Assembly (NCBI GenBank): GCA_963756455.1
Contig: CAVWNC010000004.1
Location: 503,098-567,097, forward strand
Length of the DNA stretch: 64,000 nt
From: an uncultured Acidobacteriota bacterium
GTDB lineage: Bacteria; Acidobacteriota; Thermoanaerobaculia; Multivoradales; UBA5704
Direction of reading: 5' to 3'
Shown here piece after piece: positions 2,910-44,449 of the stretch. A program made the position numbers and the translations under genes. The notes under the pieces were generated by a model that was not told the DNA's origin, made no database searches, and saw only the letters and a list, made by a program, of their open reading frames with translations. The stretch's first letter is position 1. Each line of letters starts with the position of its first letter.

Positions 2910-3268
2910 CTGTGGCAGCGGCCACCTGGGTCGATAACGCAGCCGGTGTCGGTGCTCGGCTTCGAGGCCCCCTCCGTGCAGCGGCCGTTCGGGTCGATCC
3001 AGCAGCCCAAATTGGTGCTCGCTTTGGGCGGTGCCGGTGGGACCACCTGCGTGGCACCGGTCAGGCAACGACCGCTCGGGTCGATCCAGCAACCCGTGTC
3101 GCTCCAAAGCCTTTGGAGGCTGCTCCAGGCGCGGTCCAAGATCGTCGAAGGGGCCGAGGCCGTCGTTTTCAGAGCCCTTCGCGGCGCGGCGACCGAGGGC
3201 CAGGGGAGGACGAGCACGGCGACGAACAGGAGGAAAAGGGTCTTGCGACGGAGAGAGAGGGTGGTCAT
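2906..3268 (-). CDS. small secreted protein/peptide precursor with three tandem GCWIDPxGRC repeats
   Basis: Second ATG (3268) of ORF 2906..3307(-) is preceded by a GGAG RBS. MTTLSLRRKTLFLLFVAVLVLPWPSVAAP is a signal peptide. It is followed by DTGCWIDPSGRC, NLGCWIDPNGRC and DTGCVIDPGGRC. The DNA shows three imperfect repeats of the core ggtcgatccagca (one copy variant ggtcgataacgca). The gene converges on regulator 1 and diverges from regulator 2. Confidence 0.6.
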   Translation of the reverse strand: MTTLSLRRKTLFLLFVAVLVLPWPSVAAPRRALKTTASAPSTILDRAWSSLQRLWSDTGCWIDPSGRCLTGATQVVPPAPPKASTNLGCWIDPNGRCTEGASKPSTDTGCVIDPGGRCHS

Positions 3269-3384
3269 GGAGGCTCCTGAGGAGAGGGGCTCCGCCGTGG
3301 CCGCCATGGCCCCGGGGGCGGCTCTCGATAAGAAAGGTGCACCAACTCACCATAACCGATGGAAAAACGAGGGAGGGGGTTGAC

Positions 3385-4836
3385 ATGGCGAAGAGGGGAG
3401 ATCCGAAGGTCCTGCGGTTCGTCGTGCTGTTCCTGCGCCACTATGCGGACCTGACCCAGGAGGCCTTCGGCCAGGCCGCGAGGGTCGACCAGGGGACCAT
3501 CTCGATTTACGAGGCGGGCGACAAGGCCCCACCGGAAGACGTTCTGCGGCGGATGGCGGTCGTGGCGCAGGTGCCCTGGCCGCTGGTGGTGCTCCTGCGC
3601 CGCTTCCTCACCGTCCTCTTCGCCTGGCTGGCTGGCGGGAGCGCGCTCGCGGTGCCGCGGGAGGGAACGCCGGCCGAAGAGGCAGCCCTGGAGGCGGCGC
3701 TTCTGGCGGTGGTCCCGTACCGGATCGAGGAGGCTGTAGCGGACGAGAACGGCCCCTCACCGGAGGAGGAGCGCCGGGAGGCCGAGGAGATCTGGGCCGG
3801 CCTGGAGCCCTTTCCGCTCGCCGAACGCCGGCGGTGGATCGAGCTCACCGTCCGCGCCTCCCGGAGTTGGGCCCTGGCGGAGAAAATCTGCCATGCCAGC
3901 GAGCTCGCGGCGGCGCACGAAGAGGCGATGGAGCTGGCGGTCCTCGCCATCTCGATTGCGGAACGGGTGCCGGACGAGGCGCGAAGGGCGCGCACTCTGG
4001 GCTACTCTGGGGGCTACGTCGGAAACGCTCATCGGGTCGCAACCGAATTCGAGCGCGCTCGGGCGGCCTTCGCTCTGGCCCGGGAGCACTGGAAGTCGGG
4101 TGAAGGAGCGCGTTCCCTACCCCTTGCCGGCTGGCGGCTGGAAGACCTCGAAGCGTCGCTCTACACCGATCGACGCCAGTTCCCCGAGGCTCTGGACTGT
4201 CTCAACCGGGCTTTAGCGGCCTGTGGAGACGATGCCTTGGCGGTCGGGCGTATCCTGACGAAGAAGGCGCATGTCCTGGAACAGTTGGGCGACCCCGCGG
4301 GTTCTCTCCAGGCCTTGGAACAGGCGACTCCCGCGATCGAAGCTTCTGGCGATCCGTAGCTCCTCTTTGAGCTTCGCTTCAACACCGTGGCCAACCTTGT
4401 CCACCTGGAGCAATATGAAAAGGGAGAGCGGCTCCTCGCCGAGGTGCGCGAGATGGCGGTCGCGCAAAGAAGGAATCTCCACCTGATCCGCCTGACGTGG
4501 CTGGAGTCTAAGGTAGCCGCCGGGCGGGGACGGACGGAGGAGGCGAAGGCCGGCCTGGAGCAGGTGATCCAGGAGTTCGCGGGCCTCCCCTATGAAGCAG
4601 CTTTGGCCTCCCTGGACCTGGCGGTGCTCCAACTCAAGGAAGGGCGCACGGCCGAGGTGAAGGAGCTGGCGGGCGCCATGGGCGGGATCTTCGAGGTCAA
4701 GGGGATCGCTCGGGAGGCGCTGGCGGCGCTTCGACTTTTCTGCGAGGCCGCGATCCAGGAGGGCGCTACGGTCGAGCTGGCGAAGCAAGTGATCGCTGAG
4801 GTGGAGAGAGCCCAGCGCGCGAGCTCTCCTGCGTAG
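3385..4836 (+). pseudogene. XRE-HTH + TPR regulator paralog 2, interrupted by an in-frame amber codon at 4357-4359
   Basis: ATG 3385 with a gagggaggggg RBS. ORFs 3031..4359 and 4387..4836 share one frame (both coordinate mod 3 = 1). Alignment to paralog 1 reads ADPNQLFALRFN against GDP*LLFELRFN, so a single nonsense change separates the halves. Confidence 0.6.
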
Positions 4837-4892
4837 CGAGGGCCAGGGGTAGGCGTTTGGGATCGCGGGATGCTGGATTCCGTCCGCTCCCA

Positions 4893-5192
4893 CGTGGAGA
4901 CACAACAATCGGACCCAGAAGCCCATGGGAGGGGTTTCCGGACACTACGGCGAGCCGTAGAGACACAAGCGCTGGTCCTGGAGACACTACGGGAGGACGT
5001 AGAGCCACTACGCTTACGACTGTAGACACTACGGAACGATCCAGAGACACTACGTTTTCTGCTGGAGACACTACGAAACGAGCTGGAGACACAAGAAACT
5101 CTGGCGGAAGCGAAGGACACGGCCTGCCGTAGTGTCTCGCCGACCGGTTCCCGGGTGTCGACGGGGGACCTTTGTGTCTCTACGCCAGCAGG
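4893..5192. repeat. array of 21-bp tandem repeats (about 9 direct copies, consensus tgGAGACACTACG + 8 nt) plus 2 inverted copies, abutting the 3' side of tRNA-Leu
   Basis: Successive units include tagagacacaagcgctggtcc, tggagacactacgggaggacg, tagagccactacgcttacgac, tgtagacactacggaacgatc, cagagacactacgttttctgc, tggagacactacgaaacgagc and tggagacacaagaaactctgg. Inverted copies are cgtagtgtctc at about 5128 and tgtgtctctacg at about 5172. Track ORF 4857..5132 (DTT heptads) is its translation artefact. Confidence 0.7.
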
Positions 5193-5208
5193 GTACGAAG
5201 GTCCAGAG

Positions 5209-5291
5209 TGCCGGAGGCGGGACTCGAACCCGCATGCCCTTACGGGCGGAAGATTTTAAGTCTCCTGCGTATACCATTTCGCCACTCCGGC
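5209..5291 (-). tRNA. tRNA-Leu, anticodon UAA
   Basis: Reverse complement reads GCCGGAGUGGCGAAAUGGUAUACGCAGGAGACUUAAAAUCUUCCGCCCGUAAGGGCAUGCGGGUUCGAGUCCCGCCUCCGGCA. There is a 7-bp acceptor stem GCCGGAG/CUCCGGC, an anticodon loop CUUAAAA, a long variable arm and a GGUUCGAGUCC T-arm. CCA is not encoded. Confidence 0.8.
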
Positions 5292-5377
5292 GGCGGCTGG
5301 ATTGTAGCAGTGCCGGCAGGCTACAATCCCGCCCCGCACGCAATCGACCGACCTTCGTCGTCTTGGGACCCTCTGCC

Positions 5378-6463
5378 ATGTATCGTGAGCCCGACCTCTC
5401 TCTGCCGCACTTCGCCGCCGCCCCCGACTGCCGCTTCACCCCGGCGCCGGCGGACACCGTCCTCCCCGATGGGTTCATGTCGACGACCGACCATCCGACC
5501 TACGTCAAGATCGCGGGCCGCTGGCGGATGCCCGAACGGCCGCGCATGGACTCCCACCTGGTTTGGGACCCCGCCACCGAGCGGTTGATCGTCAAGGAGT
5601 TCCGCCTCGTCCGCCAGGGCGACCTCGTGGCCACCGTGCGCGCCGAGGACGGCTCGGAGGGGGTTCTCGTCTGGGATCACGGCTTCGCCGACGAGGTCGA
5701 CCAGACCGCCGCCGAGGCGTTCTCGTTCATGTCCTCCGAGGTGAGCCGGGAGAAGCCGGTCAACTACGATGCCATCTTGAAGGAATTCCTCAACAACCGG
5801 GGCGATCGCGGCTACATCCTCTGGGTGATCGGGCCGGCTCTCGTCCATGCCCGCGGGCGCCAGGCCATGGAGTGGATGATCCACCACGGCTTCTGCCATG
5901 GCCTCATCTCCGGCAACGCGGTGGGAGTCCACGACGTCGAGGCCGCCCTCTACGGCACGACGCTCGGCATGATGGCCGACGGGTCGGGGAGCGCGGGCGG
6001 GCACATCACCCACATGCGGGCGATCAACGAGGTCAAGAAGGCGGGCTCGATCCGCGCTCTGGTCGACGACGGGCGCCTCAAGAGCGGCATCATGCACGCG
6101 CTTACGGTGACCGGCACGCCCTATGTCCTCGGCGGCTCGATCCGCGACGACGGTCCGCTGCCGGAGACCCTCGCCTCCGTCCTCGACGCCCAGGCCGCCA
6201 TGCGCGAGCTGACCGTCCAGGCGACCATGGTCGTCATGGTGGCGACCGCCCTCCACGCCATCGCCGTCGGCAACATGCTCCCCACCTTCTGCGCCCGCCC
6301 CGACGGCTCGATCTCGGAGGTTACGACCATCTGCGTCGACCAGACCGAGTTCGTCGTCAACAAGCTCAAGGACCGCGGCACCCACCAGGCCTTCGGCGTC
6401 GTCACCAACGCCCAGGACTTCCTCCGTCTCCTCCAGCTCGAGCTCCAGGAACGGGTCGGATAG
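5378..6463 (+). CDS. conserved hypothetical protein, possibly a LOR/SDH-like (TIGR00300-type) enzyme
   Basis: Track ORF 5132..6463 begins inside the tRNA, so the start is taken at ATG 5378 (MYREPDLS...). Globular composition with GGHITHMRAINEV and GNAVGVHD motifs. Family assignment is from memory and tentative. Confidence 0.4.
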   Translation: MYREPDLSLPHFAAAPDCRFTPAPADTVLPDGFMSTTDHPTYVKIAGRWRMPERPRMDSHLVWDPATERLIVKEFRLVRQGDLVATVRAEDGSEGVLVWDHGFADEVDQTAAEAFSFMSSEVSREKPVNYDAILKEFLNNRGDRGYILWVIGPALVHARGRQAMEWMIHHGFCHGLISGNAVGVHDVEAALYGTTLGMMADGSGSAGGHITHMRAINEVKKAGSIRALVDDGRLKSGIMHALTVTGTPYVLGGSIRDDGPLPETLASVLDAQAAMRELTVQATMVVMVATALHAIAVGNMLPTFCARPDGSISEVTTICVDQTEFVVNKLKDRGTHQAFGVVTNAQDFLRLLQLELQERVG

Positions 6464-6504
6464 ATAGGTAGCTCCGGCGGCTGGCCTCCGGCATCGCGAT
6501 CTGG

Positions 6505-6905
6505 AATCCCGTAGATCCACGCCAGGGGCAGGGTACTTTGGGCTTGGATCTATGTGGTTCCAGTTTGAAACCACGTAGATCCACGGCGGAAGTCGGGTGC
6601 TTTTGGCGTGGATCTAGGTGGTTCCAGTTTGAATCCACGTAGATCCACGGCGGAGACCGGGTGCTTTTTGTCGTGGATCTGGGTGGTCCTGGTTTGAAAC
6701 CACGTAGATCCACGGGCGGAGGCCGGATGCTTTGGACGTGGATCCAGGTGGTTCCAGTTTGAAACCACGTAGATCCACGGTGGAGGTCGGGTGCTTTTGT
6801 CGTGGATCTAGGTGGTTCCAGTTTGAAACCATGTAGATCCACGGTGGAGGTCGGGTGCATTGGACGTGGTTCTACAGGCTTCCGGTTGGGAACCCGTAGG
6901 CCCAT
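6505..6905. repeat. tandem array of about six 64-bp units, each with a 16-bp-arm hairpin (GTGGATCTAGGTGGTT-ccagtttga-AACCACGTAGATCCAC) plus a conserved 23-bp linker
   Basis: Units start at about 6543, 6608, 6673, 6738, 6802 and 6866, the last one degenerate. Linkers are ggcggaagtcgggtgcttttggc-like and conserved between units, so these are not CRISPR spacers. Every copy shares the same single G-G mismatch in mid-stem. Confidence 0.75.
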
Positions 6906-7073
6906 GCGTCCCACCGCCGGGCGGGCGGTGGTGAGCCAGGGCGGGGGTGCAGGCGACACGGTAGGGCATTCTACGATCCCGTTGCGGTCCCGTGGCTCTG
7001 GGTCGACCAGACTCGGAGATTCGTCAGAGGCGAATCTGCAGGGGTGAGCTTGCAGGTGTTTAGCCTTACCGGC

Positions 7074-7427
7074 TCACCGGCGCTTCTGTTTTCCAGGGGT
7101 GGCAGTCCCGAAGTAGCTCGCTGTTGCCTGTTCGAGGAGGAGTGCTGCGACCTGCATGGGGCTTACTTGCCGGTCCCCCGCGCTGAGCAGACTGGCGAGC
7201 TCTTTGAGACGTTGCTCGGTTTCAGGAGCCATGGGCACCTTCGGCCTTTTACTCCATGCCGGATTGGAAGGACGACCAGGACGCTTACCGGAGCTCGGTT
7301 CCAGTCGCCCTCGCAAGCTCTCCGCCAGCGCTGCCATGCCGAAAGCACCCGCGGAGTAATCGGGCACAGTACCTACCATGGTAGCGCCAAGTTTTTTCGC
7401 CAAGGACTCAATGTTCTTAGCCATCAT
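7074..7427 (-). CDS. putative ribbon-helix-helix (CopG-like) DNA-binding protein, 117 aa
   Basis: KRPKVPMAPETEQRLKELASLLSAGDRQVSPMQVAALLLEQA fits a strand-helix-helix RHH pattern. It overlaps the upstream ORF by 11 bp. Confidence 0.4.
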   Translation of the reverse strand: MMAKNIESLAKKLGATMVGTVPDYSAGAFGMAALAESLRGRLEPSSGKRPGRPSNPAWSKRPKVPMAPETEQRLKELASLLSAGDRQVSPMQVAALLLEQATASYFGTATPGKQKRR

Positions 7428-36367: not shown

Positions 36368-38154
36368 GCTTCTATTTCGATCGCTTCGAGGATCGCCGCC
36401 CGCCCGCGCCGTTACCTTATTCGGCGGCCCGGGAGCTCCTCTGGCAGTTCCTCGCGGCCTTGAGCCTCGGGCTCGGCGCCTGGTACATCGCCTGGCGTTG
36501 GGGCGGGTCGCTCAACCGCCAGGCGCTGTGGTTCGCCATCCCTCTGGTGCTGGCGGAAACCTGTGCCTATATCGGCATGGTCCTCTTCACCTTCAACCTC
36601 TGGCGCGACACGCCGCCGTCGATCCCCGAGCCGCCGCGCCGGATCGCCGAGTGCGTGGCCGCCGCCGTGGCGGAGGACCGGCCGCTCCGGGTGGACGTCT
36701 TTTTCCCCACCTACAACGAGGAGCTCGACCTCGTCCGGCTGAGCGTCGAGGACGCCAAGCGGCTCTCCTATCCCTATCCGATCGATATTCGCATCCACGT
36801 CCTCGACGACGGTCGCCGCGACGACATGCGGCAGCTCGCGGCGGAGCTCGGGGTCGGCTACATCACCCGCACGAGCAAGGCCGGCTTCAAGGCCGGCAAC
36901 CTGCGAAACGCCATGGAGCAGACCGACGGCGACTTCATCGTCATCTGCGATGCCGACACCCGGCCGTTCCCCACTCTCCTGGAGCACACGCTCGGCTACT
37001 TCCGCGATCCCGAGATGGCGTGGGTGCAGACGCCGCAGTGGTTCTTCGATCTCCCCGCGGGGAGCCGTCTGCCGGCGGCCTGGGGGCGCCGGCTGGGGGC
37101 CATCGGCCGTCTTCTCGGGCGGGGCGTCGAGGCCTGCATCGGGCCGGTGACGGTGGGCGCCGATCCCTTCGTCAACGATCCGCAGATGTTCTACGACGTC
37201 ATCCAGCGCCGTCGCGGTTGGGCCAACGCCACCTTCTGCTGCGGCGCGGGCTCCGTGCACCGCCGGGAGGCGGTGATGGAGGCGGCGGTGAAGGGTTGGG
37301 TGGCGCAGATCGACGACGAGGTTCGGCGGGTGAAGGAGAGCCTGGGGGAGGCAGACGTCCCTGGTGGCTTGGAAGCGGCGATGCGCCGCCAGGTCGCCCG
37401 CGACATCGAGCTCACGCCCTACAAGTTCCACGTTTCGGAGGACATCTACACCTCGATCGTCCTCCACGGCGACCGCGACCGGCACTGGAAGTCGGCGTTT
37501 CACCCCTATGTGCAATCGAAGATGCTGTCCCCTCAGGATCTGCAGACCTGGGCCATCCAGCGCTTCAAGTACGCCGGCGGCACCCTGGACATCTGCCTGC
37601 ACGACAACCCGGTCTTCCGGCGTGGTCTCGACTGGCGGCAGAAGGTGATGTACGCCTCGACTTTGTGGTCGTATTTCGGCGGCCTGTGGAACGTCGCCTT
37701 CCTCGCCTCGCCGGTGATCTTCCTGTTCACCGGCATCGCCCCGGTTGCGAGCTACTCGTTCGAGTTCTTCAAGCACGCGCTGCCGTTCCTGATCGCCAAT
37801 CAGCTCGCGACGATGGTGGGCACGTGGGGCGTCGAGAACCTGAAGGGCAAGGGCTCGTTCATCTCCTTTTTCTCGCTCAACCTGCGCGCCCTGTGGACGG
37901 TCGTGCGCGGCGAGACGATCAAGTTTCCGGTCACCCCCAAGGAGCGGCAGAGCGGTACGTTCTACCGCCTGGTGAAGCCGCAGATCGCCTTCATCGCCCT
38001 CACTCTCGCCGGTCTCCTCGTGCAGGCGCTGCGGCTTCTCTTCTGGCACCGGGGCGATCCCGGCGCCTACCTGACCAATCTTTTCTGGGGCTTGAACAAC
38101 GTCTACCTGCTGTCGGGCATCGTCCGCGCGGCGGGCTTTAAACCCGAGGAGTGA
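36364..38154 (+). CDS. membrane GT2 processive beta-glycan synthase (cellulose-synthase-like), lacking a PilZ domain
   Basis: Start overlaps the GH9 stop. TM helices flank a GT-A domain with VFFPTYNEE, VLDDGRRD, IVICDADT (DxD), TEDI-like VSEDIYTS and a Q-R-F-K-Y variant of QxxRW. Confidence 0.65.
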   Translation: MSFYFDRFEDRRPPAPLPYSAARELLWQFLAALSLGLGAWYIAWRWGGSLNRQALWFAIPLVLAETCAYIGMVLFTFNLWRDTPPSIPEPPRRIAECVAAAVAEDRPLRVDVFFPTYNEELDLVRLSVEDAKRLSYPYPIDIRIHVLDDGRRDDMRQLAAELGVGYITRTSKAGFKAGNLRNAMEQTDGDFIVICDADTRPFPTLLEHTLGYFRDPEMAWVQTPQWFFDLPAGSRLPAAWGRRLGAIGRLLGRGVEACIGPVTVGADPFVNDPQMFYDVIQRRRGWANATFCCGAGSVHRREAVMEAAVKGWVAQIDDEVRRVKESLGEADVPGGLEAAMRRQVARDIELTPYKFHVSEDIYTSIVLHGDRDRHWKSAFHPYVQSKMLSPQDLQTWAIQRFKYAGGTLDICLHDNPVFRRGLDWRQKVMYASTLWSYFGGLWNVAFLASPVIFLFTGIAPVASYSFEFFKHALPFLIANQLATMVGTWGVENLKGKGSFISFFSLNLRALWTVVRGETIKFPVTPKERQSGTFYRLVKPQIAFIALTLAGLLVQALRLLFWHRGDPGAYLTNLFWGLNNVYLLSGIVRAAGFKPEE

Positions 38155-38167
38155 AAGGAGCGGCGCC

Positions 38168-39526
38168 GTGACGTTCAAGGAAGGGCTCATCCTGTCGCGT
38201 GGCCATCTCGTCTTCCTGGCCGGTCTCGCGGCGGCGTTCGGCATCGCCATCGCGCTCGAACGGGAAAAAATCCAGGTTCCGGTCCATGCGTCCGCTTCCC
38301 AGGTGACGGCGACGATGACCGCTCCGGGTCCGCCGCTGGCGCTGCCGGCGGTTCCGCCGCCCGGGCCGCTGTCGGCGGCGGACCTGGCGCGGGCGCAGCG
38401 GGCCTGGTCCTACTTCGAGGTCAACCGGCGACCGGAGACCGGGCTCGTCGACTCCGTCGACCGCTATCCGGCGACGACGATGTGGGATACGGCCTCCTAC
38501 CTGATGGCCTTGATCGCCGCCCGCCGCCTGGAGGTGATCCCACAGGCGACTTTCGATGCGCGGATCGCGGCCGCCCTGGGCGCCCTCGCGCGGCTGCCGC
38601 TCTTCGCGGGCAAGCTGCCCAACAAGTCGTACAACACGCAGTCTCTCGCCATGGTCGATTACAGCAACCACCCCACGCCGCGCGGCATCGGCTGGTCGGC
38701 GATCGACATCGGCCGCCTGCTCGTGCCGATGAACATCCTCGTCTGGCAGCAGCCGCAACACACCCCGGCCGTGCGCGCGGTCGTGGCGCGCTGGCAGCTC
38801 GCCGACCTGGTGCGCGACGGCCGGCTCTTCGGGGAGATCCTGAAACCCGACGGCCAGGTCGCGAGCCAGCAGGAGGGGCGCCTGGGGTACGAGGAGTACG
38901 CGGCCAAGTCGTTCACGCTCCTCGGGCAGGACGTCTCCGAAGCCCTCGGATACCGGGAGTTCGTGCAGTGGGTGAAGATCGACGGCATCGAGGTCGCGAC
39001 CGACAGCCGGACGCCGCAGCTCTTCGGGGCGCACAATTACGTCGTGAGCGAGCCCTACGTCCTCGACGGCCTGGAGTTCGGTTGGGATCGCGCCAGCCGC
39101 GATCTCGCGGCGCGGGTCTTCGCCGCGCAGGAGGCGCGCTTCCACCGCACCGGGGTGCTCACCGCGGTGAGCGAGGACAACATCGACCGGGCGCCCTATT
39201 TCGTCTACAACACCGTTTTTAGCGACGGCAAGGCGTGGAACACGCTGACCGACACCGGGGCCGATGCTTCGGTCGACCGGAGCCTGAGCGTCAAGGCGGC
39301 CTTCGGTTGGGATGCGCTCTACCGGACGGCCTATACCGCCCAGCTCGTCGCGGCGGTCGAGGGTCTTTACGATCCGGCGCGCGGCTACTATTCCGGCCGC
39401 TACGAGAGCGACGGCCAGCCGAATCGGGCGATCACCTGCAACACCAACGCGATTCTTTTGGAAAGCCTCGCCTACCGTCACCTCGGCCCGCTGGTCCAAG
39501 GCGACGCCGGGAAGAGCGCGCCATGA
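38168..39526 (+). CDS. paralog 1 of an unidentified about 450-aa secreted/membrane-anchored family
   Basis: GTG start with an AAGGAG RBS. N-terminal TM anchor. Family motifs are RAWSYFEVN, TGLVDSVDRYPATTMWDTASYLMAL, LPNKSYNT, IGWSAIDIGRLL and QEGRLGYEEYAAKSF. Confidence 0.6.
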   Translation: MTFKEGLILSRGHLVFLAGLAAAFGIAIALEREKIQVPVHASASQVTATMTAPGPPLALPAVPPPGPLSAADLARAQRAWSYFEVNRRPETGLVDSVDRYPATTMWDTASYLMALIAARRLEVIPQATFDARIAAALGALARLPLFAGKLPNKSYNTQSLAMVDYSNHPTPRGIGWSAIDIGRLLVPMNILVWQQPQHTPAVRAVVARWQLADLVRDGRLFGEILKPDGQVASQQEGRLGYEEYAAKSFTLLGQDVSEALGYREFVQWVKIDGIEVATDSRTPQLFGAHNYVVSEPYVLDGLEFGWDRASRDLAARVFAAQEARFHRTGVLTAVSEDNIDRAPYFVYNTVFSDGKAWNTLTDTGADASVDRSLSVKAAFGWDALYRTAYTAQLVAAVEGLYDPARGYYSGRYESDGQPNRAITCNTNAILLESLAYRHLGPLVQGDAGKSAP

Positions 39527-41055
39527 CGCCGCGTTGGCCGGCCTTTCTGCTGGTCGGCATCGCCGCGCTGACCGCGCTGGGGGGCCCTCTCGGCTGCAGC
39601 GGCTATGCGGCGAAGGCGGCTCCCGCGACGAGCGCGGCCGGCACGGCGGCCGTCTCCAGGGTGGAGCGCGAAGCGACGGCGGCGGCGGCCTGTGCCACCG
39701 GGCAGGGGCAGACGCAACCGGTCTGCTGCATGGCGACCGCGGCCTGCTCGGGCACGGCCCGTCATCCCGGGCGGAACGGCTGCCTGACGCCGAAAGAGCT
39801 CGAAATGGCGAAGATCGCCTGGCGGTACTTCGAGAACAACGAGCAGAAAGAGACCGGCCTCGTCAACGCCGTCGACACCTACCCGTCGACCACCCTGTGG
39901 GACACCGCCTCCTACCTGGGGGGGCTGATCGCCGCCCATCGCCTCTGCCTCATCCCGACGAGCGAATTCGATCGCCGGGTCGTCGCCCTGCTCCACACTC
40001 TGGGCTCGGTTTCGCTCTACCGGGGCGAGCTGCCGAACAAGGTGTACAACACGAAGACGGCGGAAAAAGTGAACTATGGGAACGTTCCCGGTGAGATCGG
40101 CTTTTCCGCCCTCGATATCGGCCGTCTCTTGATCTGGCTCCGCATCCTCCGCGAGTACTATCCGGAGCACGGCAACGCCGCGGACAGAGTCGTCATGCGC
40201 TGGAACTTCTGCCACGTCGTCGACGCCTGCGGCACCCTCTTCGGGGCCTACATCGATACCGACAAGTCGACCGTCTACGCGCAGGAGGGACGGCTCGGCT
40301 ACGAGGAGTACTCGGCCCAGGGCTTCGATCTCTGGGGAGCACCGGCGCCGCGGGCGGAGCTGCCGGAGCCCTACGCCGTCATCCCGATCTACGGCATCGA
40401 CATCCCGTACGACACCCGCGACCCGCGGGAGCTCAAGGCGCACAACTACGTCGTCTCCGAGAGCTACATCCTTTCCGGCATCGAGCTCAACTGGGACCTG
40501 GCTTCCGACAAGAGCGAAGACGACATGCACCACAGCATCCCCTGGATGGCGGATTTCGCCGACCGCATCTACCGCGTGCAGGAGGCGCGCTACAAGGCGA
40601 CAGGAATCGTGACGGCGCGCACCGAGCACCAGCTGGACAGCGCACCCTACTTCGTCTACGACACGATCTTCAGCGACGGCTTCGCCTGGAACACGATCAC
40701 CGAGGAGGGCCTGTATTCGCCGCGTTTCGCGGCGATCGCGATCAAGGGCGCGCTCGGCCTCTGGGCACTCTGGGATACGCCTTATACCGACCTGCTGTTC
40801 CGCATCGTCGCCAACAAATACGATCCGGAGAAGGGTTTCTACGAGGGGATCTACGAGGACGGCCGGGGCGTGATCAAAACCTTCACCGCCAACAACAACG
40901 GGATTCTCTTAGAGCTCCTGCTCTACAAGGTGGAGGGCAAGCTCCTGCGCTTCAGCGGCGCGCCGAGCCTCTGGGAGCACTATCTGGTCAACGAGCGCTC
41001 GAACGGCGCGGTGCGCTGCGTGCCGCGCAGTGTCAGCTGCAAGGATCCACCTTGA
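39523..41055 (+). CDS. paralog 2 of the same family, lipoprotein
   Basis: ATGA overlap with paralog 1. Lipobox LGGPLGC. Same motifs: TGLVNAVDTYPSTTLWDTASYLGGL, LPNKVYNT, IGFSALDIGRLLIWLRI and QEGRLGYEEYSAQGF. Confidence 0.6.
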   Translation: MTPRWPAFLLVGIAALTALGGPLGCSGYAAKAAPATSAAGTAAVSRVEREATAAAACATGQGQTQPVCCMATAACSGTARHPGRNGCLTPKELEMAKIAWRYFENNEQKETGLVNAVDTYPSTTLWDTASYLGGLIAAHRLCLIPTSEFDRRVVALLHTLGSVSLYRGELPNKVYNTKTAEKVNYGNVPGEIGFSALDIGRLLIWLRILREYYPEHGNAADRVVMRWNFCHVVDACGTLFGAYIDTDKSTVYAQEGRLGYEEYSAQGFDLWGAPAPRAELPEPYAVIPIYGIDIPYDTRDPRELKAHNYVVSESYILSGIELNWDLASDKSEDDMHHSIPWMADFADRIYRVQEARYKATGIVTARTEHQLDSAPYFVYDTIFSDGFAWNTITEEGLYSPRFAAIAIKGALGLWALWDTPYTDLLFRIVANKYDPEKGFYEGIYEDGRGVIKTFTANNNGILLELLLYKVEGKLLRFSGAPSLWEHYLVNERSNGAVRCVPRSVSCKDPP

Positions 41056-42476
41056 GGTCAGGGCCGTTGCGCGGTCGCTGGTGCCGGGCTCTCTCGCTCG
41101 CGGCGGCGATCCTGCTCGCCGGCTGCGGCGTGATCGTCCGCGGTGTCTATCGTGGGGTCTCTTCGGTCCGCGATTCCGAGCTCTTCCACCAGGGCCGGCA
41201 CGGCCCCTTGAGCGACGAGGAAAAGGAATGGGCGAAGGCGGCGTGGAAATACTTCGAGAACAATGAGAACCCCGCGACCGGGCTCGTCGGCTCGGTCGAT
41301 CAGTACCCGGCCGCGAGCCTGTGGAACCTGGCGGATCACCTGGCGGCGATGCTCGCCGCCAAAGAGCTCGGGCTCATCACCCAGCGCGACCTCGACGCCC
41401 GCCTGAGCCTCACCCTCCAATTTCTCAACACCATGCCCCTCTTTCTGGATCGGCTGCCCAACCGCCTTTACAACACGGCGAGCGGCCGCATGGTCAACTA
41501 TGCCAACCAGCCGGAGGCGATCGGCTGGTCGGCGATCGATCTCGGCCGGCTGCTGCTCTGGCTGCGGATCGCCGCCCAGCGCTACCCGGCCTATCGGGAG
41601 TACATCGAGAAAGCCGTGCTCCGCTTGAGCTTCTGCGACGTCGTGGACGAGTGCGGCGGGCTCCACGGCGGCGCCCGCATGCAGGATCGGCTGCAGCTGC
41701 TGAGCGAGGGGCAGCTGGGCTACCAGCAGTACGCCGCCCTGGGCTTTCAGGCCTGGGGCTTCGACACCACCCGCGCCTCGCGGATCGCGCCTTTCGCGCG
41801 CCTCAAAATCGACGGCGTCGAGATCCTCTACGACGCGGAAGATCCGAGAGAGACCGGCGGCTTCGCGCCGGTCCTCTCCGGCCCCGCCGTGCTGGAGGGC
41901 CTGGAGCTCAACTGGGATCGCGTCGACGACCGGACGAGCAACGACACCGAGCACAGCGATTTCGTCCTGGCGGATCTGGCAGAGCGCATCTACGCCGTCC
42001 AGGAGGCCCGCTTTCGGCAGACCCACGTGCTGACCGCGCGGACGGACCATCCGCTGTCGCAGAACCCTTTTTTCGTCTACGACTCGATCTTCGTCGCCGG
42101 CTATCCGTGGAACACCATCTCCGATCACGGCGACGTCTTCCTCGACAAGTCGCTGGTTTCGACCCGCGCCGTCTTCGGCCTCTGGGCGCTCTGGCGGACC
42201 GCCTACACCGACGAGCTGATGCGCGGCACGCGCCACCTCTACGACCCCCAGAAGGGGTGGTTCGAGGGGCGCTACGAGGCGACCGGCGGCTACGAGCGGA
42301 CGATCTCCTGCACCACCAACGCCATCGTCTTGGAGAGCCTCCTCTACAAGCTTCAGGGCAAGCTCTTCGGGCGCGACGCGCCCGGCTCGTATCTGACGGC
42401 GTTCCTGGCCGACCCGTTCCGCCATCCGGGGCGCTGCTTTCCGAACGAGAGGGCGGGATGCAAAGGCGAGCCTTGA
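41052..42476 (+). CDS. paralog 3 of the same family, lipoprotein (TTG start)
   Basis: Lipobox LLAGCGV. TGLVGSVDQYPAASLWNLADHLAAM, LPNRLYNT, IGWSAIDLGRLLLWLRI and SEGQLGYQQYAALGF. Confidence 0.55.
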   Translation: MRSGPLRGRWCRALSLAAAILLAGCGVIVRGVYRGVSSVRDSELFHQGRHGPLSDEEKEWAKAAWKYFENNENPATGLVGSVDQYPAASLWNLADHLAAMLAAKELGLITQRDLDARLSLTLQFLNTMPLFLDRLPNRLYNTASGRMVNYANQPEAIGWSAIDLGRLLLWLRIAAQRYPAYREYIEKAVLRLSFCDVVDECGGLHGGARMQDRLQLLSEGQLGYQQYAALGFQAWGFDTTRASRIAPFARLKIDGVEILYDAEDPRETGGFAPVLSGPAVLEGLELNWDRVDDRTSNDTEHSDFVLADLAERIYAVQEARFRQTHVLTARTDHPLSQNPFFVYDSIFVAGYPWNTISDHGDVFLDKSLVSTRAVFGLWALWRTAYTDELMRGTRHLYDPQKGWFEGRYEATGGYERTISCTTNAIVLESLLYKLQGKLFGRDAPGSYLTAFLADPFRHPGRCFPNERAGCKGEP

Positions 42477-44449
42477 TCCGCTGGGCGCGACTCGGGCTGA
42501 GAGCCGGCCGGATCGCGATCGTGATCGCGCTCGCCGCCGCTCGCTCGGCTCCGCTCGTCGCCCTCACGGATCCCAACACCCACGGGCGCGAGTTGCTCCA
42601 GGCCGGCGACCCGCGCACGGCGGGGGTCGCCTGGCTCGCCGCCGCCGCGGAGCAGTCGCGGGAGGGGAGCAACCCCGGCGTCCTGCGACAGGCGGCCCTG
42701 TCGGCGGTTCTCGCGACGATCGCTTTCGAACGCGCCAGGGATGGGCGCGCCTATGTCGCCTGGTCGCAGGCGATCCGCTGGTGGCTGGAGGCCGGCACCT
42801 CCTGGGAAGTGGAGCGCGCGGTCCTCGGCCGGCGGGTCCGCGAGATCCAGGCCAGCCTGCGGGGCGCGGAGGTGACCGCCGGAGGTCCCACCCCGGCGGC
42901 GGGGGAGCTCCAACTCCTCGCGCTCGCGTCCGCCACCGGCTTTCTCGACTACTCGGGGCCGCGGCCGGGCCTGCCCTCTCCCCAGGAGGACGCCGGGCTG
43001 CCGATCCCCGTGCAACGCGACTACTTCGCGCGTCCGCTGGGGGTGGAAGAGGAGGAGAAGAGCGCTCCCGAGACGCGGGGCCGCGTAGCAGAGGAGCCGC
43101 CGCCGGCCCTGGCTCTGGACCCCACTGCGAGCCCGGCCCCAGTTTCACCTGCCGGGCTTGGCGGGCACGGCTTGCCGAGCGCGGGCTCCCCCGCGGAGAT
43201 CACTCCCGCTCCGACTCCCAGCCTGCCGCCTCCGGCGCCTACGCCTGAGAAGCCCGCCGAGCCGAAGGGCGAGGCCGCGCCGCTCGCCATGACGGACCTG
43301 GCGGTGGCGCGGGCGGCCTGGCGGTACTTCGTCGCCGCCCGGCAGGAGAACACCGGGCTCTACAACTCCGTCGCCGGCTACCCCTACGCCACCCTGTGGG
43401 ATCTGGGCAGCGGGCTCGCCGGCCTGGTCGCGGCCGAGCAGCTCCACATCCTCGATGCGGGGAGCTTCCACCGCGATGCCGTGCTGTTCTTGACGACGCT
43501 GCGTGAGATGTCGCTCTACAAGGGCGAGCTGCCCAACCGCGAATACCAGACGCAGAGCGGCCGCATGGTCGATCTCCTAAACCACCCGTCGCCGGTCGGA
43601 AGCGGTTGGTCGGCGCTCGACCTCGGACGCCTGCTGATCTGGCTGCGGATCACCGCCGACTTCTATCCGGACCTCCGCCCGCGGGTCGAGAAGGTGGTCC
43701 AGCGGTTCGATTTCTCCCGCCTCGCGGCCGGCGGCGAGATGCACGGGGCGATCGTCACCAAAAACGGCGAGAGCCTCAACCAGGAAGGGCGCTTGGGCTA
43801 TGAGCAGTACGCCGCCGCCGGTTACGCTCTCTGGGGCGTGGCCCTCCAGGCGGCGCACGGCTACGGAGAGATCGTCTTCACCCCGCTCGACGGCCAGAGC
43901 GTCCCGCGCGACCGGCGCGAGAACGCCAATCTGACGAGCGACCCGTTCATCCTCGCCGGCCTCGAATTGGGCGGCATCGACCCGACCTTCCAGGGTTTCA
44001 CCGAGACCGTCCACGCCGCCCAGCGGCGGCGTTTCGAGACGACCCGGATGCTGACCGCGGTGGGGGAGGATGCGCTCGACCAGGAGCCCTGGTTCGCCTA
44101 CAACTCGGTCTTCGCCGACGACCGGCCCTGGCAGTGCCGGAGCGCCGGCGGCCGCGACGTTCCCGAGCTGCGGACGCTCGGCACCAAGGCGGCGTTCGGC
44201 TGGGCGGCCCTCTACCCCGACGACTACGGCAAGCGCCTGCGCCGGGCCGTCGAGCCGTTGCTCCATCCGCGCCTCGGCTTCTACGCCGGGATCTACGAGC
44301 GCGATGGCGCGACCAACAAAGCGCAGAACGTCAACACCAATGCCGTCATCCTGGAAGCGATGCTCTTCTTACAGCGCGGCGGCAAGCCCTTTCTCGACCT
44401 CCCGGCGATCCCGGCCGGGCCGGAGCCTCAGCGCGGCACCCAGCGGTAG
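42458..44449 (+). CDS. paralog 4 of the same family with an about 280-aa N-terminal extension and a Pro/Ala-rich linker
   Basis: ATG 42458 with MQRRALIRWARLG signal-anchor. TPAPTPSLPPPAPTPEKPAEPKGEAAP linker. Then TGLYNSVAGYPYATLWDLGSGLAGL, LPNREYQT, SGWSALDLGRLLIWLRI and QEGRLGYEQYAAAGY. The 5' portion of track ORF 41321..44449 is an out-of-frame artefact. Confidence 0.55.
   Translation: MQRRALIRWARLGLRAGRIAIVIALAAARSAPLVALTDPNTHGRELLQAGDPRTAGVAWLAAAAEQSREGSNPGVLRQAALSAVLATIAFERARDGRAYVAWSQAIRWWLEAGTSWEVERAVLGRRVREIQASLRGAEVTAGGPTPAAGELQLLALASATGFLDYSGPRPGLPSPQEDAGLPIPVQRDYFARPLGVEEEEKSAPETRGRVAEEPPPALALDPTASPAPVSPAGLGGHGLPSAGSPAEITPAPTPSLPPPAPTPEKPAEPKGEAAPLAMTDLAVARAAWRYFVAARQENTGLYNSVAGYPYATLWDLGSGLAGLVAAEQLHILDAGSFHRDAVLFLTTLREMSLYKGELPNREYQTQSGRMVDLLNHPSPVGSGWSALDLGRLLIWLRITADFYPDLRPRVEKVVQRFDFSRLAAGGEMHGAIVTKNGESLNQEGRLGYEQYAAAGYALWGVALQAAHGYGEIVFTPLDGQSVPRDRRENANLTSDPFILAGLELGGIDPTFQGFTETVHAAQRRRFETTRMLTAVGEDALDQEPWFAYNSVFADDRPWQCRSAGGRDVPELRTLGTKAAFGWAALYPDDYGKRLRRAVEPLLHPRLGFYAGIYERDGATNKAQNVNTNAVILEAMLFLQRGGKPFLDLPAIPAGPEPQRGTQR

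Follow-up and report, generated by a model that had tools for sequence, protein, structure and literature searches.

A phased 21-bp repeat array beside tRNA-Leu(UAA) in an uncultured Acidobacteriota bacterium and its relation to a dispersed foldback-type repeat family

Organization of the array

This analysis concerns an array of short tandem repeats at positions 4894-5187 of a 64,000-nt stretch of DNA from an uncultured Acidobacteriota bacterium of the class Thermoanaerobaculia (assembly GCA_963756455.1, contig CAVWNC010000004.1, forward-strand positions 503,098 to 567,097), which is referred to in its full length as the window. The array is situated between two tandem genes for HTH(XRE)-TPR proteins on its left and, on its right, a minus-strand gene for tRNA-Leu(UAA) followed by the gene for an ArgZ-like protein. 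On the evidence given below it is almost certainly one copy of a dispersed family of foldback-type elements, in which a block of direct repeats is followed by an opposed block of the same repeats in inverted orientation.

The left arm of the array (4894..5103, plus strand) consists of ten 21-bp slots in exact phase, as seen in a row layout of 21 nt, in the positions of the core matches and in the output of Tandem Repeats Finder, which returned a period of 42 (score 125) in addition to a period of 21. Nine of the ten slots carry a core of the form GAGACAC(T/A)A(C/G)(G/A), in its fuller form nT(G/T)GAGACAC(T/A)A.., and every forward core starts at a position equal to 4 modulo 21. Perfect GAGACACTACG cores are found at 4981, 5044 and 5065, cores with one mismatch at 5002 and 5023, and cores with two or three mismatches at 4897, 4939, 4960 and 5086. 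Three of the latter four (4897, 4960 and 5086) represent a second variant, so that the left arm is a mixture of A-type units (GAGACACTACG, ..CTACG) and B-type units (GAGACACAAGA/AACA, ..CAAGA). The 42-bp period arises because units of the two types often alternate; this superstructure is to be added to the approximately nine direct repeats at exact 21-bp phase that had been recognized in an earlier note on this DNA and that the row layout bears out. The one slot without a core (4915-4935) is a conserved 'gap' module. It forms the middle part of a left terminal module (4894..4956, plus strand) in which the outermost unit, gtgGAGACACAACA, is followed by the core-less 21-nt gap unit, which holds a small palindrome (CCCATGGG), and then by the unit CGGACACTACG.

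Between the two arms the row layout places a degenerate unit (5104..5124, assigned to no strand), and the switch from forward to inverted units occurs at the equivalent point in other members of the family. The short right arm (5125..5187, minus strand) is made up of three inverted units, as compared with 9-16 in other members of the family. The first, CGTAGTGTCTC at 5128-5138, is perfect and lies 11 x 21 bp from the first core of the array; another, CTTTGTGTCTC at 5170-5180, has two mismatches and stands at a distance of 13 x 21 bp; the third, GGGTGTC (5153-5159), is degenerate and 2 nt off register. A spacer of about 20 nt (5188..5207, no strand), which contains GGTACGAAGGT, separates the array from the tRNA gene. 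The earlier note had the array abutting the 3' end of the tRNA gene, with two inverted copies within 40 bp of it. The array does lie beyond that 3' end and both inverted copies are real, but the spacer intervenes, the first copy is 70 nt away and only the second is within 40 bp.

With at most one mismatch the core is matched six times in the 64-kb window, always within the array, as compared with 0.71 +/- 0.82 matches in 100 shuffles, and a chance origin of the array is therefore excluded. Outside the array the heptamer GAGACAC is neither over- nor under-represented in the window (4 observed versus 5.8 expected). This copy of the element is lopsided, with ten units on the left versus about three on the right, where other copies have 7-16 units per side; because its right arm is short it folds weakly (z = -4.2, versus about -14 for full copies). 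A scan of positions 4300-5500 for sigma-70 promoters returned none, and the three terminator-like matches in the same interval are all weak.

A dispersed family in soil Thermoanaerobaculia

An exact-pattern scan of public metagenomes for two cores situated 10-31 nt apart returned 48 loci, most of which are unrelated tandem repeats of low GC content. The remaining 15, with GC contents of 0.64-0.71, have the same core at 21/42-bp spacing and the same succession of a forward block and an inverted block. Six of these 15 contigs originate from a single soil sample (Ga0137403), and tblastx comparisons tie the flanking genes of the family loci to Thermoanaerobaculia loci. After grouping of orthologous contigs (L105/L119/L122; L084=L102/L111/L129; L100 as the reverse of L128; L numbers designate individual loci throughout), about ten independent loci are left, counted across the metagenome contigs. 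A full element measures 400-600 bp and comprises 7-16 units of 21 bp followed by the opposed block of inverted units. The terminal modules are conserved, many elements ending 5'-TGGAGACAC...GTGTCTCCA-3', and one version of the terminal module includes the core-less gap unit with its small palindrome.

The genes that neighbor these copies are diverse, ordinary and chromosomal, and they occur in all orientations relative to the array; they include genes for a nitrilase, a MacB-like permease, STAND-TPR, CHAT-TPR, sulfotransferase-like, alpha/beta-hydrolase and DinB proteins and a weakly matching winged-helix protein. No tRNA was found near any of the 15 other family loci, and no integrase, Rep gene or transposase was found beside their arrays. 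In many cases the metagenome array is only a few kb away from the end of its contig, a position that fits with multi-copy repeats breaking assemblies. In 1.2 Mb of other Thermoanaerobaculia loci the core does not occur. A BLAST search of the array against plasmid and phage collections gave no match, leaving without support the similarity to mobile replicons that the earlier note had proposed to look for, and a pattern scan of viral contigs gave a single match, to an unrelated AT-rich 24-bp repeat. The literature that was searched contains no description of bacterial elements of this kind, which is an absence of evidence within that literature only.

The relationships among copies are revealing of how the family has spread. 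L128, L098 and L116, which are at unrelated loci, have left terminal modules that are homologous to that of the window copy (4894-4956) in their spacers as well. Similarly, the arms of L097 and L122 are 89% identical although they are flanked by different genes on either side, and at their non-core positions the identity is 78%, compared with a baseline of 61-70% between unrelated copies. Because spacers and terminal modules are shared by copies at unrelated loci, the element must have been copied from one locus to another.

Other comparisons speak of long persistence. In the locus represented by L111, L129 and L084 the array has been kept although the adjacent protein is only 56-71% identical, and the three arrays are 86-90% identical in their cores and 64-74% identical at non-core positions. 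The first unit of the array (at 248 in L084, 586 in L111 and 3024 in L129) reaches into or directly adjoins the stop codon of one and the same small upstream gene in all three, reading GAGACATAAC in L111 and L129 and GAGACACTACG in L084. This gene gives a weak winged-helix (IclR/MarR-like) match; it was considered as a partner of the element and set aside, as it has no homologue in the window and the three contigs amount to a single locus. In L119 and L122, which are orthologous copies, the arrays differ by entire units, and L105 and L122 have only their right flank in common, with the array standing at the synteny break between them. The family has therefore been copied between loci and then inherited vertically over long periods with drift in the number of units. 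Its behavior in this respect resembles that of REPINs, which are often vertically inherited for long periods, more than that of young MITEs (miniature inverted-repeat transposable elements).

Constraint on the repeat unit

A sequence logo of 248 units from 12 loci defines the unit as nnT(G/T)G(A/g)GACAC(T/a)A(c/g)(g/a)(a/g) with about seven free positions after it. The bases G2, A3, C4, A5 and C6 are conserved at 97-100%, although their conservation is partly built in as they lie within the heptamer used for selection; T(-2), at 85%, and A8, at 93%, are outside this heptamer and provide independent evidence of constraint. The spacer positions carry only 0.1-0.5 bits. Units follow one another in steps of 21 bp in 170 of about 220 cases (77%), and steps of 20, 22, 23 and 24 bp are also seen, whereas 19 steps of 42 bp reflect a missed unit. 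A-type and B-type units are both common across the family and frequently alternate.

Full copies of the element can fold into very stable structures (folding free energies of -218 to -340 kcal/mol, z about -14). Both strands fold about equally well, with no consistent strand asymmetry in folding or in the use of G-U pairs. In nine of 11 elements, complementarity between the 8-nt spacers of mirrored units does not exceed that obtained when the order of the units is permuted, and the consensus fold rests on invariant pairs between cores with very few compensatory changes. Since the arms are thus not mirror images of one another, the hairpin potential comes from the cores, and the arms are to be regarded as two independent arrays of one oriented site. 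Searches of Rfam with the window region and with eight full copies of the family gave nothing above noise.

The array does not have the properties of a gene. In none of the six frames does its GC content at third codon positions (GC3) exceed 0.71, as against 0.74-0.96 for the likely open reading frames (ORFs) of the window. The most conserved bases of the unit cover all three codon positions, some of the steps between units would shift the reading frame, most members of the family have TAG or TGA within each frame, and a search with the translated array among 5.8 billion proteins gave one weak match.

The contrast between core and spacer, the non-coding nature of the array and the lack of complementarity between mirrored spacers together favor phased protein-binding sites over an RNA or a gene. 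The units are best read as predicted sites for a sequence-specific protein, which at a spacing of two helical turns would bind on one face of the DNA. The earlier note had pointed in the same direction from the window copy, and the invariant core, variable spacers and two-turn spacing seen across the family agree with this part of its proposal.

Synteny and flanking genes

The tRNA-Leu(UAA) gene (5208..5291, minus strand; identified by ARAGORN and by Rfam, tRNA, 59 bits) is a neighbor of the element and lies outside it. To its right is the gene for the ArgZ-like protein (5378-6463), the relatives of which are all from Acidobacteriota and mainly from the class Thermoanaerobaculia. The closest relatives are in L001 (94% amino acid identity) and L002 (90%), and among the relatives it is only in these two that tRNA-Leu(UAA) is found upstream of the gene. 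DNA homology between the window and L001/L002 covers exactly 5206/5208-6471, which is to say the tRNA and the ArgZ-like gene, and ends on both sides. In L001 and L002 a gene resembling those for nonribosomal peptide synthetases (NRPS-like) ends 7-110 nt from the 3' end of the tRNA; it consists of AMP-binding plus PP-binding domains in L001, the counterpart in L002 having been read from sequence only. Neither of these two closest genomes has a repeat array beside tRNA-Leu(UAA), and the flank on the far, left side of the array is not syntenic with them. The situation is thus not that of one array fixed at the same position in all relatives between invariable flanks, which the earlier note had named as the outcome that would speak against its proposal.

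Fine alignment shows that window positions 5191-5202 (GGTACGAAGGT) match the last codons of the NRPS-like gene that lies 3' of the tRNA in L001, and about 12-20 nt of ancestral sequence have accordingly been kept 3' of tRNA-Leu in the window. The window copy therefore stands at a synteny breakpoint that coincides with the array's edge, about 20-25 nt past the tRNA and outside the tRNA gene, and this is not the crossover position of integrases that target tRNA genes. No second copy of the 25-nt tRNA 3' end occurs in the window, even when three mismatches are allowed.

The two HTH(XRE)-TPR genes on the other side of the array (1401-2909 and 3031-4836) are tandem paralogues, both of which end with TAG. 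The second is broken by an in-frame TAG at 4357-4359 (..GAT CCG TAG CTC..), and its homology to the first runs on in frame across this codon (53% and 68% identity on either side), so that it is either a pseudogene or subject to read-through. The HTH(XRE)-TPR family is large in Thermoanaerobaculia and the tandem pair is a recurrent module. In L130 (3690-4300) the pair is followed by a gene for an AlpA-like excisionase with copies of GCTGCCAGCGG/CCGCTGGCAGC on either side, in L131 (4814-16154) it is next to genes for NikA/MobC, a relaxase and a type IV secretion system coupling protein, and a Type ISP restriction gene is found near it in L131 and L132, while in L132-L134 the pair stands amid chromosomal genes. 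It is possible that conjugative or integrative elements carry the module. A role for the HTH-TPR proteins as the cognate binders of the array was also considered and rejected, since GAGACAC arrays are absent from the HTH-TPR loci examined elsewhere (L130-L134) and the other family loci are without HTH-TPR genes. When the likely ORFs of the window were searched against Pfam, a search that extends 5.2 kb to the left of the tRNA, neither an integrase nor a transposase nor a Rep gene came up, in agreement with the earlier note as concerns the integrase. The flank distal to the tRNA is a variable segment, possibly derived from an island, with the element at its breakpoint.

The DNA to the right of the ArgZ-like gene is also specific to this lineage. 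A segment of about 1.6 kb (6464-8050) of lower GC content (0.59-0.62) separates the ArgZ-like gene from a MacB-like gene, the corresponding distance being about 130 bp in L002, and the block of tRNA and ArgZ-like gene is thus bordered on either side by lineage-specific DNA that bears a repeat array. Two ORFs within this segment, 7044-7517 (plus strand) and 7417-7812 (minus strand), have no Pfam match. The array on this side (6510-6874) starts 47 nt after the stop codon of the ArgZ-like gene and consists of 5.7 units of 64 bp (85% matches), each folding into a strong hairpin (CGTAGATCCACG...CGTGGATCTA plus GTGGTTC...GAAACCAC); two units together fold at -64 kcal/mol (z = -6.8). This second array is GTAG-tagged and resembles a head-to-tail REP cluster; its motif GTAGATCCACG is found in none of the 134 fetched loci.

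In several relatives the kilobase upstream of the ArgZ-like gene, where the tRNA and the array are found in the window, likewise carries arrays of 21-bp period with unrelated cores (L034 9694-9860, L035 8648-9000, L028 8816-9090), and the intergenic region in question may be a hot spot for them. Elsewhere in the window and unrelated to the array, three consecutive DUF3131 genes lie beside genes for an OpgC-like acyltransferase and a glycosyltransferase (38096-44449), in what looks like a gene cluster for a glucan or polysaccharide.

Comparison with known repeats and mobile elements

In architecture the closest analogue appears to be the Foldback (FB)/Galileo group of Drosophila transposons, which have arms on the kilobase scale, units of other lengths, target-site duplications and autonomous copies that encode a transposase. 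According to two studies, Galileo has internally repetitive terminal inverted repeats, a link to inversions and a transposase of the P superfamily (PMC3573991, PMC4079207). The family described here is similar in having long inverted arms made up of tandem short repeats, arms that are unequal and of variable length between copies, conserved ends, dispersed copies and an association with rearrangement breakpoints. It differs in that the element is bacterial, measures only 0.4-0.6 kb and is without target-site duplications or a known enzyme. It is the inverted arms of tandem short repeats, varying in length from copy to copy, that justify the term foldback-type.

The closest biochemical analogy would be with the multi-site ends of DDE transposons such as Mu, Tn7 and Tn402. 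These have transposase sites of about 19-22 bp, two to four at each end, kilobases of DNA with the transposase gene between the ends, and 5-bp target duplications. In the present family, too, sites of about 20-22 bp are close-packed and phased, direct within an end and inverted between ends, and both the units and the outer termini are of the form TG...CA. Unlike those transposons, the family has not been found to have ends of two to four sites, an interior bearing a transposase or 5-bp duplications. It shares with MITEs that it is short, non-coding and multi-copy with terminal inverted repeats, and differs in having no target-site duplication. With no target-site duplication, and no autonomous partner among the fetched loci, the family falls outside the definitions of MITEs and DDE transposons.

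REP sequences of the GTAG type consist of a self-palindromic unit of 20-40 bp with a GTAG tag (PMC3733652). Like REP, BIME and REPIN sequences (PMC3733652; PMC3116915), the elements of the family are dispersed, intergenic, non-coding, capable of forming hairpins, clustered in arrays and of lineage-specific sequence. A-type units even contain GTAG (CGTAGTGTCTC). However, only a subset of the units could form a GTAG...CTAC stem, of 4-5 bp, and whereas REP units are self-palindromic and usually alternate in orientation, those of the family are non-palindromic and sorted into two opposed blocks, and they are therefore not REP sequences. The RAYT (Y1) transposases with which REP and REPIN sequences are associated were not seen among the neighboring genes scanned in the window and at the family loci.

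The iterons of plasmids and phages and tandem-repeat centromeres also consist of direct repeats spaced by about two turns of the helix, in which a conserved core is combined with a variable spacer and which at times come with inverted sets. Those of R6K, RK2, P1/F and R1 parC comprise 5-12 direct repeats at a spacing of about 22 bp in one locus per replicon, with a neighboring rep or par gene as well as an AT-rich region. The phased repeats of the family fall within the iteron range of about 17-22 bp and have the conserved core, but they occupy about ten chromosomal loci with neither a rep nor a par gene and without similarity to plasmids, and are therefore not an iteron or centromere array. 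The MIRU elements of mycobacteria are unidirectional arrays of 46-101-bp units. With these the family shares dispersed, intergenic tandem arrays that vary in copy number, and it differs from them in its opposed arm and its 21-bp units. A CRISPR array, with repeats of 23-47 bp and unique spacers of similar length, was considered and rejected on account of the 21-bp period, the spacers of about 8-10 nt and the two opposed blocks. The family has been filed as a bacterial interspersed non-coding repeat outside any named family.

Possible origins and alternative explanations

The explanation that we prefer, and to which we give an even chance, is that the window array is a lopsided copy of a MITE/REPIN-like foldback element of soil Thermoanaerobaculia that binds a protein and is mobilized in trans. 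Each unit would be bound by one molecular species of sequence-specific DNA-binding protein. The spacing of two helical turns would place all sites on one face of the DNA, allowing the protein to coat each arm, and the opposed arms would then be brought together, as happens in transposon ends that have several transposase sites. As is the case for MITEs and REPINs, an enzyme provided in trans would copy the whole element to new chromosomal sites, after which vertical inheritance would set in and slippage or unequal exchange would alter the number of units. Several observations weigh against this explanation. Neither a target-site duplication nor a direct repeat was found at the boundaries of the 12 copies inspected, and an exact empty site did not come to light. 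Neither a partner protein nor an autonomous copy was identified, and none of the fetched loci has arms flanking a gene. The persistence of the array in L111, L129 and L084 fits with a host function at least as well as with a selfish element. Finally, to our knowledge, 7-16 sites per arm are far above the number in any characterized bacterial transposon end.

Some of these observations lend weight to an immobile platform for a host function, in which the arrays would be chromosomal landing pads for a protein with a nucleoid-associated, regulatory or segregation-type role, similar to centromeres or iterons and kept by selection. Such a platform would have the invariant core, free spacers and two-turn phasing that are observed, it would be retained beside a diverging protein as in L111/L129/L084, and it would need neither target-site duplications nor a nearby transposase; some copies, moreover, are in promoter regions, such as that of L097 between divergent genes and that of L128, which precedes a start codon by about 40 nt. 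We nevertheless consider it unlikely, as the spacers and terminal modules common to unrelated loci require copying of the whole element, the neighboring genes and their orientations are inconsistent, the closest genomes (L001 and L002) lack the array at the same site, and the sequence of the core varies between lineages. It is less probable again that the element is a locus for a structured RNA, that is, an imperfect hairpin transcript of about 200 bp acting as a small RNA precursor, RNase III substrate, protein sponge, or stabilizer or terminator. The strong folding of full copies (-218 to -340 kcal/mol, z about -14) and the location of several copies directly 3' of stop codons would be in keeping with this, but mirrored spacers that do not pair, almost no covariation, the lack of consistent strand asymmetry, the negative Rfam result and the weak fold of the window copy (z = -4.2) are not, and copies occur in all orientations to genes, divergent promoter regions included.

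The earlier note had suggested a relic attachment or replication region of an element integrated at tRNA-Leu, the array being its cluster of arm-type or terminal sites or a replication relic. This we regard as quite improbable. The synteny with L001 and L002 does stop beside the tRNA, the HTH-TPR module of the left flank is found elsewhere next to an AlpA-like gene (with the repeated motif GCTGCCAGCGG) or to relaxase and coupling-protein genes, and the in-frame TAG in its second copy suggests decay. Against this stand the other family loci, which have neither a tRNA nor the HTH-TPR module, the HTH-TPR loci elsewhere, which have no GAGACAC arrays, the ancestral sequence kept 3' of the tRNA, and the absence of plasmid and phage matches. 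With no integrase in the window (5.2 kb left of the tRNA being covered), no duplicate of the tRNA 3' end and no association with tRNA genes elsewhere in the family, the array is not an attachment site, and its association with the tRNA is incidental. Least credible of all is a coding heptad repeat, 21 nt corresponding to seven codons, or a pseudogene of one, reading either LETLRxx or GDTTxxx. The period would suit it, the ETLR frame is that of the upstream ORF, a 91-amino acid ORF (4857-5132) and a stop-free frame of the minus strand span the array, and certain 21-bp arrays of the clade (L015, L010 and L132) do look coding, with GC3 values of 0.80-0.95. The GAGACAC array itself, by contrast, has a GC3 of at most 0.71 against 0.74-0.96 for likely ORFs, conserved bases at all codon positions and implied codons that end in A (ACA, CTA) in a genome whose genes strongly prefer G or C, to which are added the steps of 20, 22, 23 and 24 bp, the TAG or TGA in every frame of most members and the near lack of matches to its translation among 5.8 billion proteins.

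Other 21-bp arrays in Thermoanaerobaculia

Tandem-repeat and lag scans over 1.28 Mb of Thermoanaerobaculia loci show that about one in two tandem arrays has a period of 21, 42 or 63 bp. Some have a coding appearance, namely those of L015, L010 (3000-3114) and possibly L132, with GC3 values of 0.80-0.95. Others have a non-coding appearance, and two of the latter show the foldback layout, L028 8816-9090 with the core CTCCCCTCTCTTCGT and a gap module of its own, and L027 20845-21080 with the core TTGGGGTCCA; in L132 14490-14800 the foldback layout and a core TTGGACGCGAAGAT are found, but with a coding-like GC3. Several of these cores start with TTG(G/A).

Further arrays of 21 or 42 bp with different cores are present in L001 (14958-15235), L017 (6263-6608), L020 (8205-8433) and L133 (17407-17640). 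The array of L132 (14368-14933) is open on both strands, with ORFs of 143 and 136 amino acids that would encode amphipathic heptads (L-D/N-A-K-I-x-I on one strand and I-L-x-x-K-I-x on the other), with a GC3 of 0.80 and low GC contents at the first and second codon positions; these features together are reminiscent of palindromic amphipathic repeat coding elements.

The element of the window may be one family of a class that extends across the clade. A more far-reaching proposal, which we advance tentatively and regard as possible rather than probable, is that Thermoanaerobaculia harbor an undescribed prokaryotic foldback class with several families of 21-bp units, each with its own core (GAGACAC, TTGGGGTCCA, CTCCCCTCTCTTCGT and TTGGACGCGAAGAT) and its own protein, which would bind one face of the helix and pair the arms, and which would constitute either a new type of transposon end or a new chromosomal system of protein-DNA arrays.

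Implications

Arrays of this kind can be misannotated as attachment sites, iterons or ORFs, and they occupy synteny breaks, as in the window and between L105 and L122. If the preferred explanation of a protein-binding foldback element mobilized in trans is correct, a structurally distinct type would be added to the bacterial interspersed repeats (REP/BIME/REPIN, BOX, MIRU and MITEs), one with arms composed of many phased short protein-binding sites, an architecture otherwise known from the foldback transposons of eukaryotes. In that case a DNA-binding or transposase partner would await discovery in a large uncultured clade of soil bacteria.

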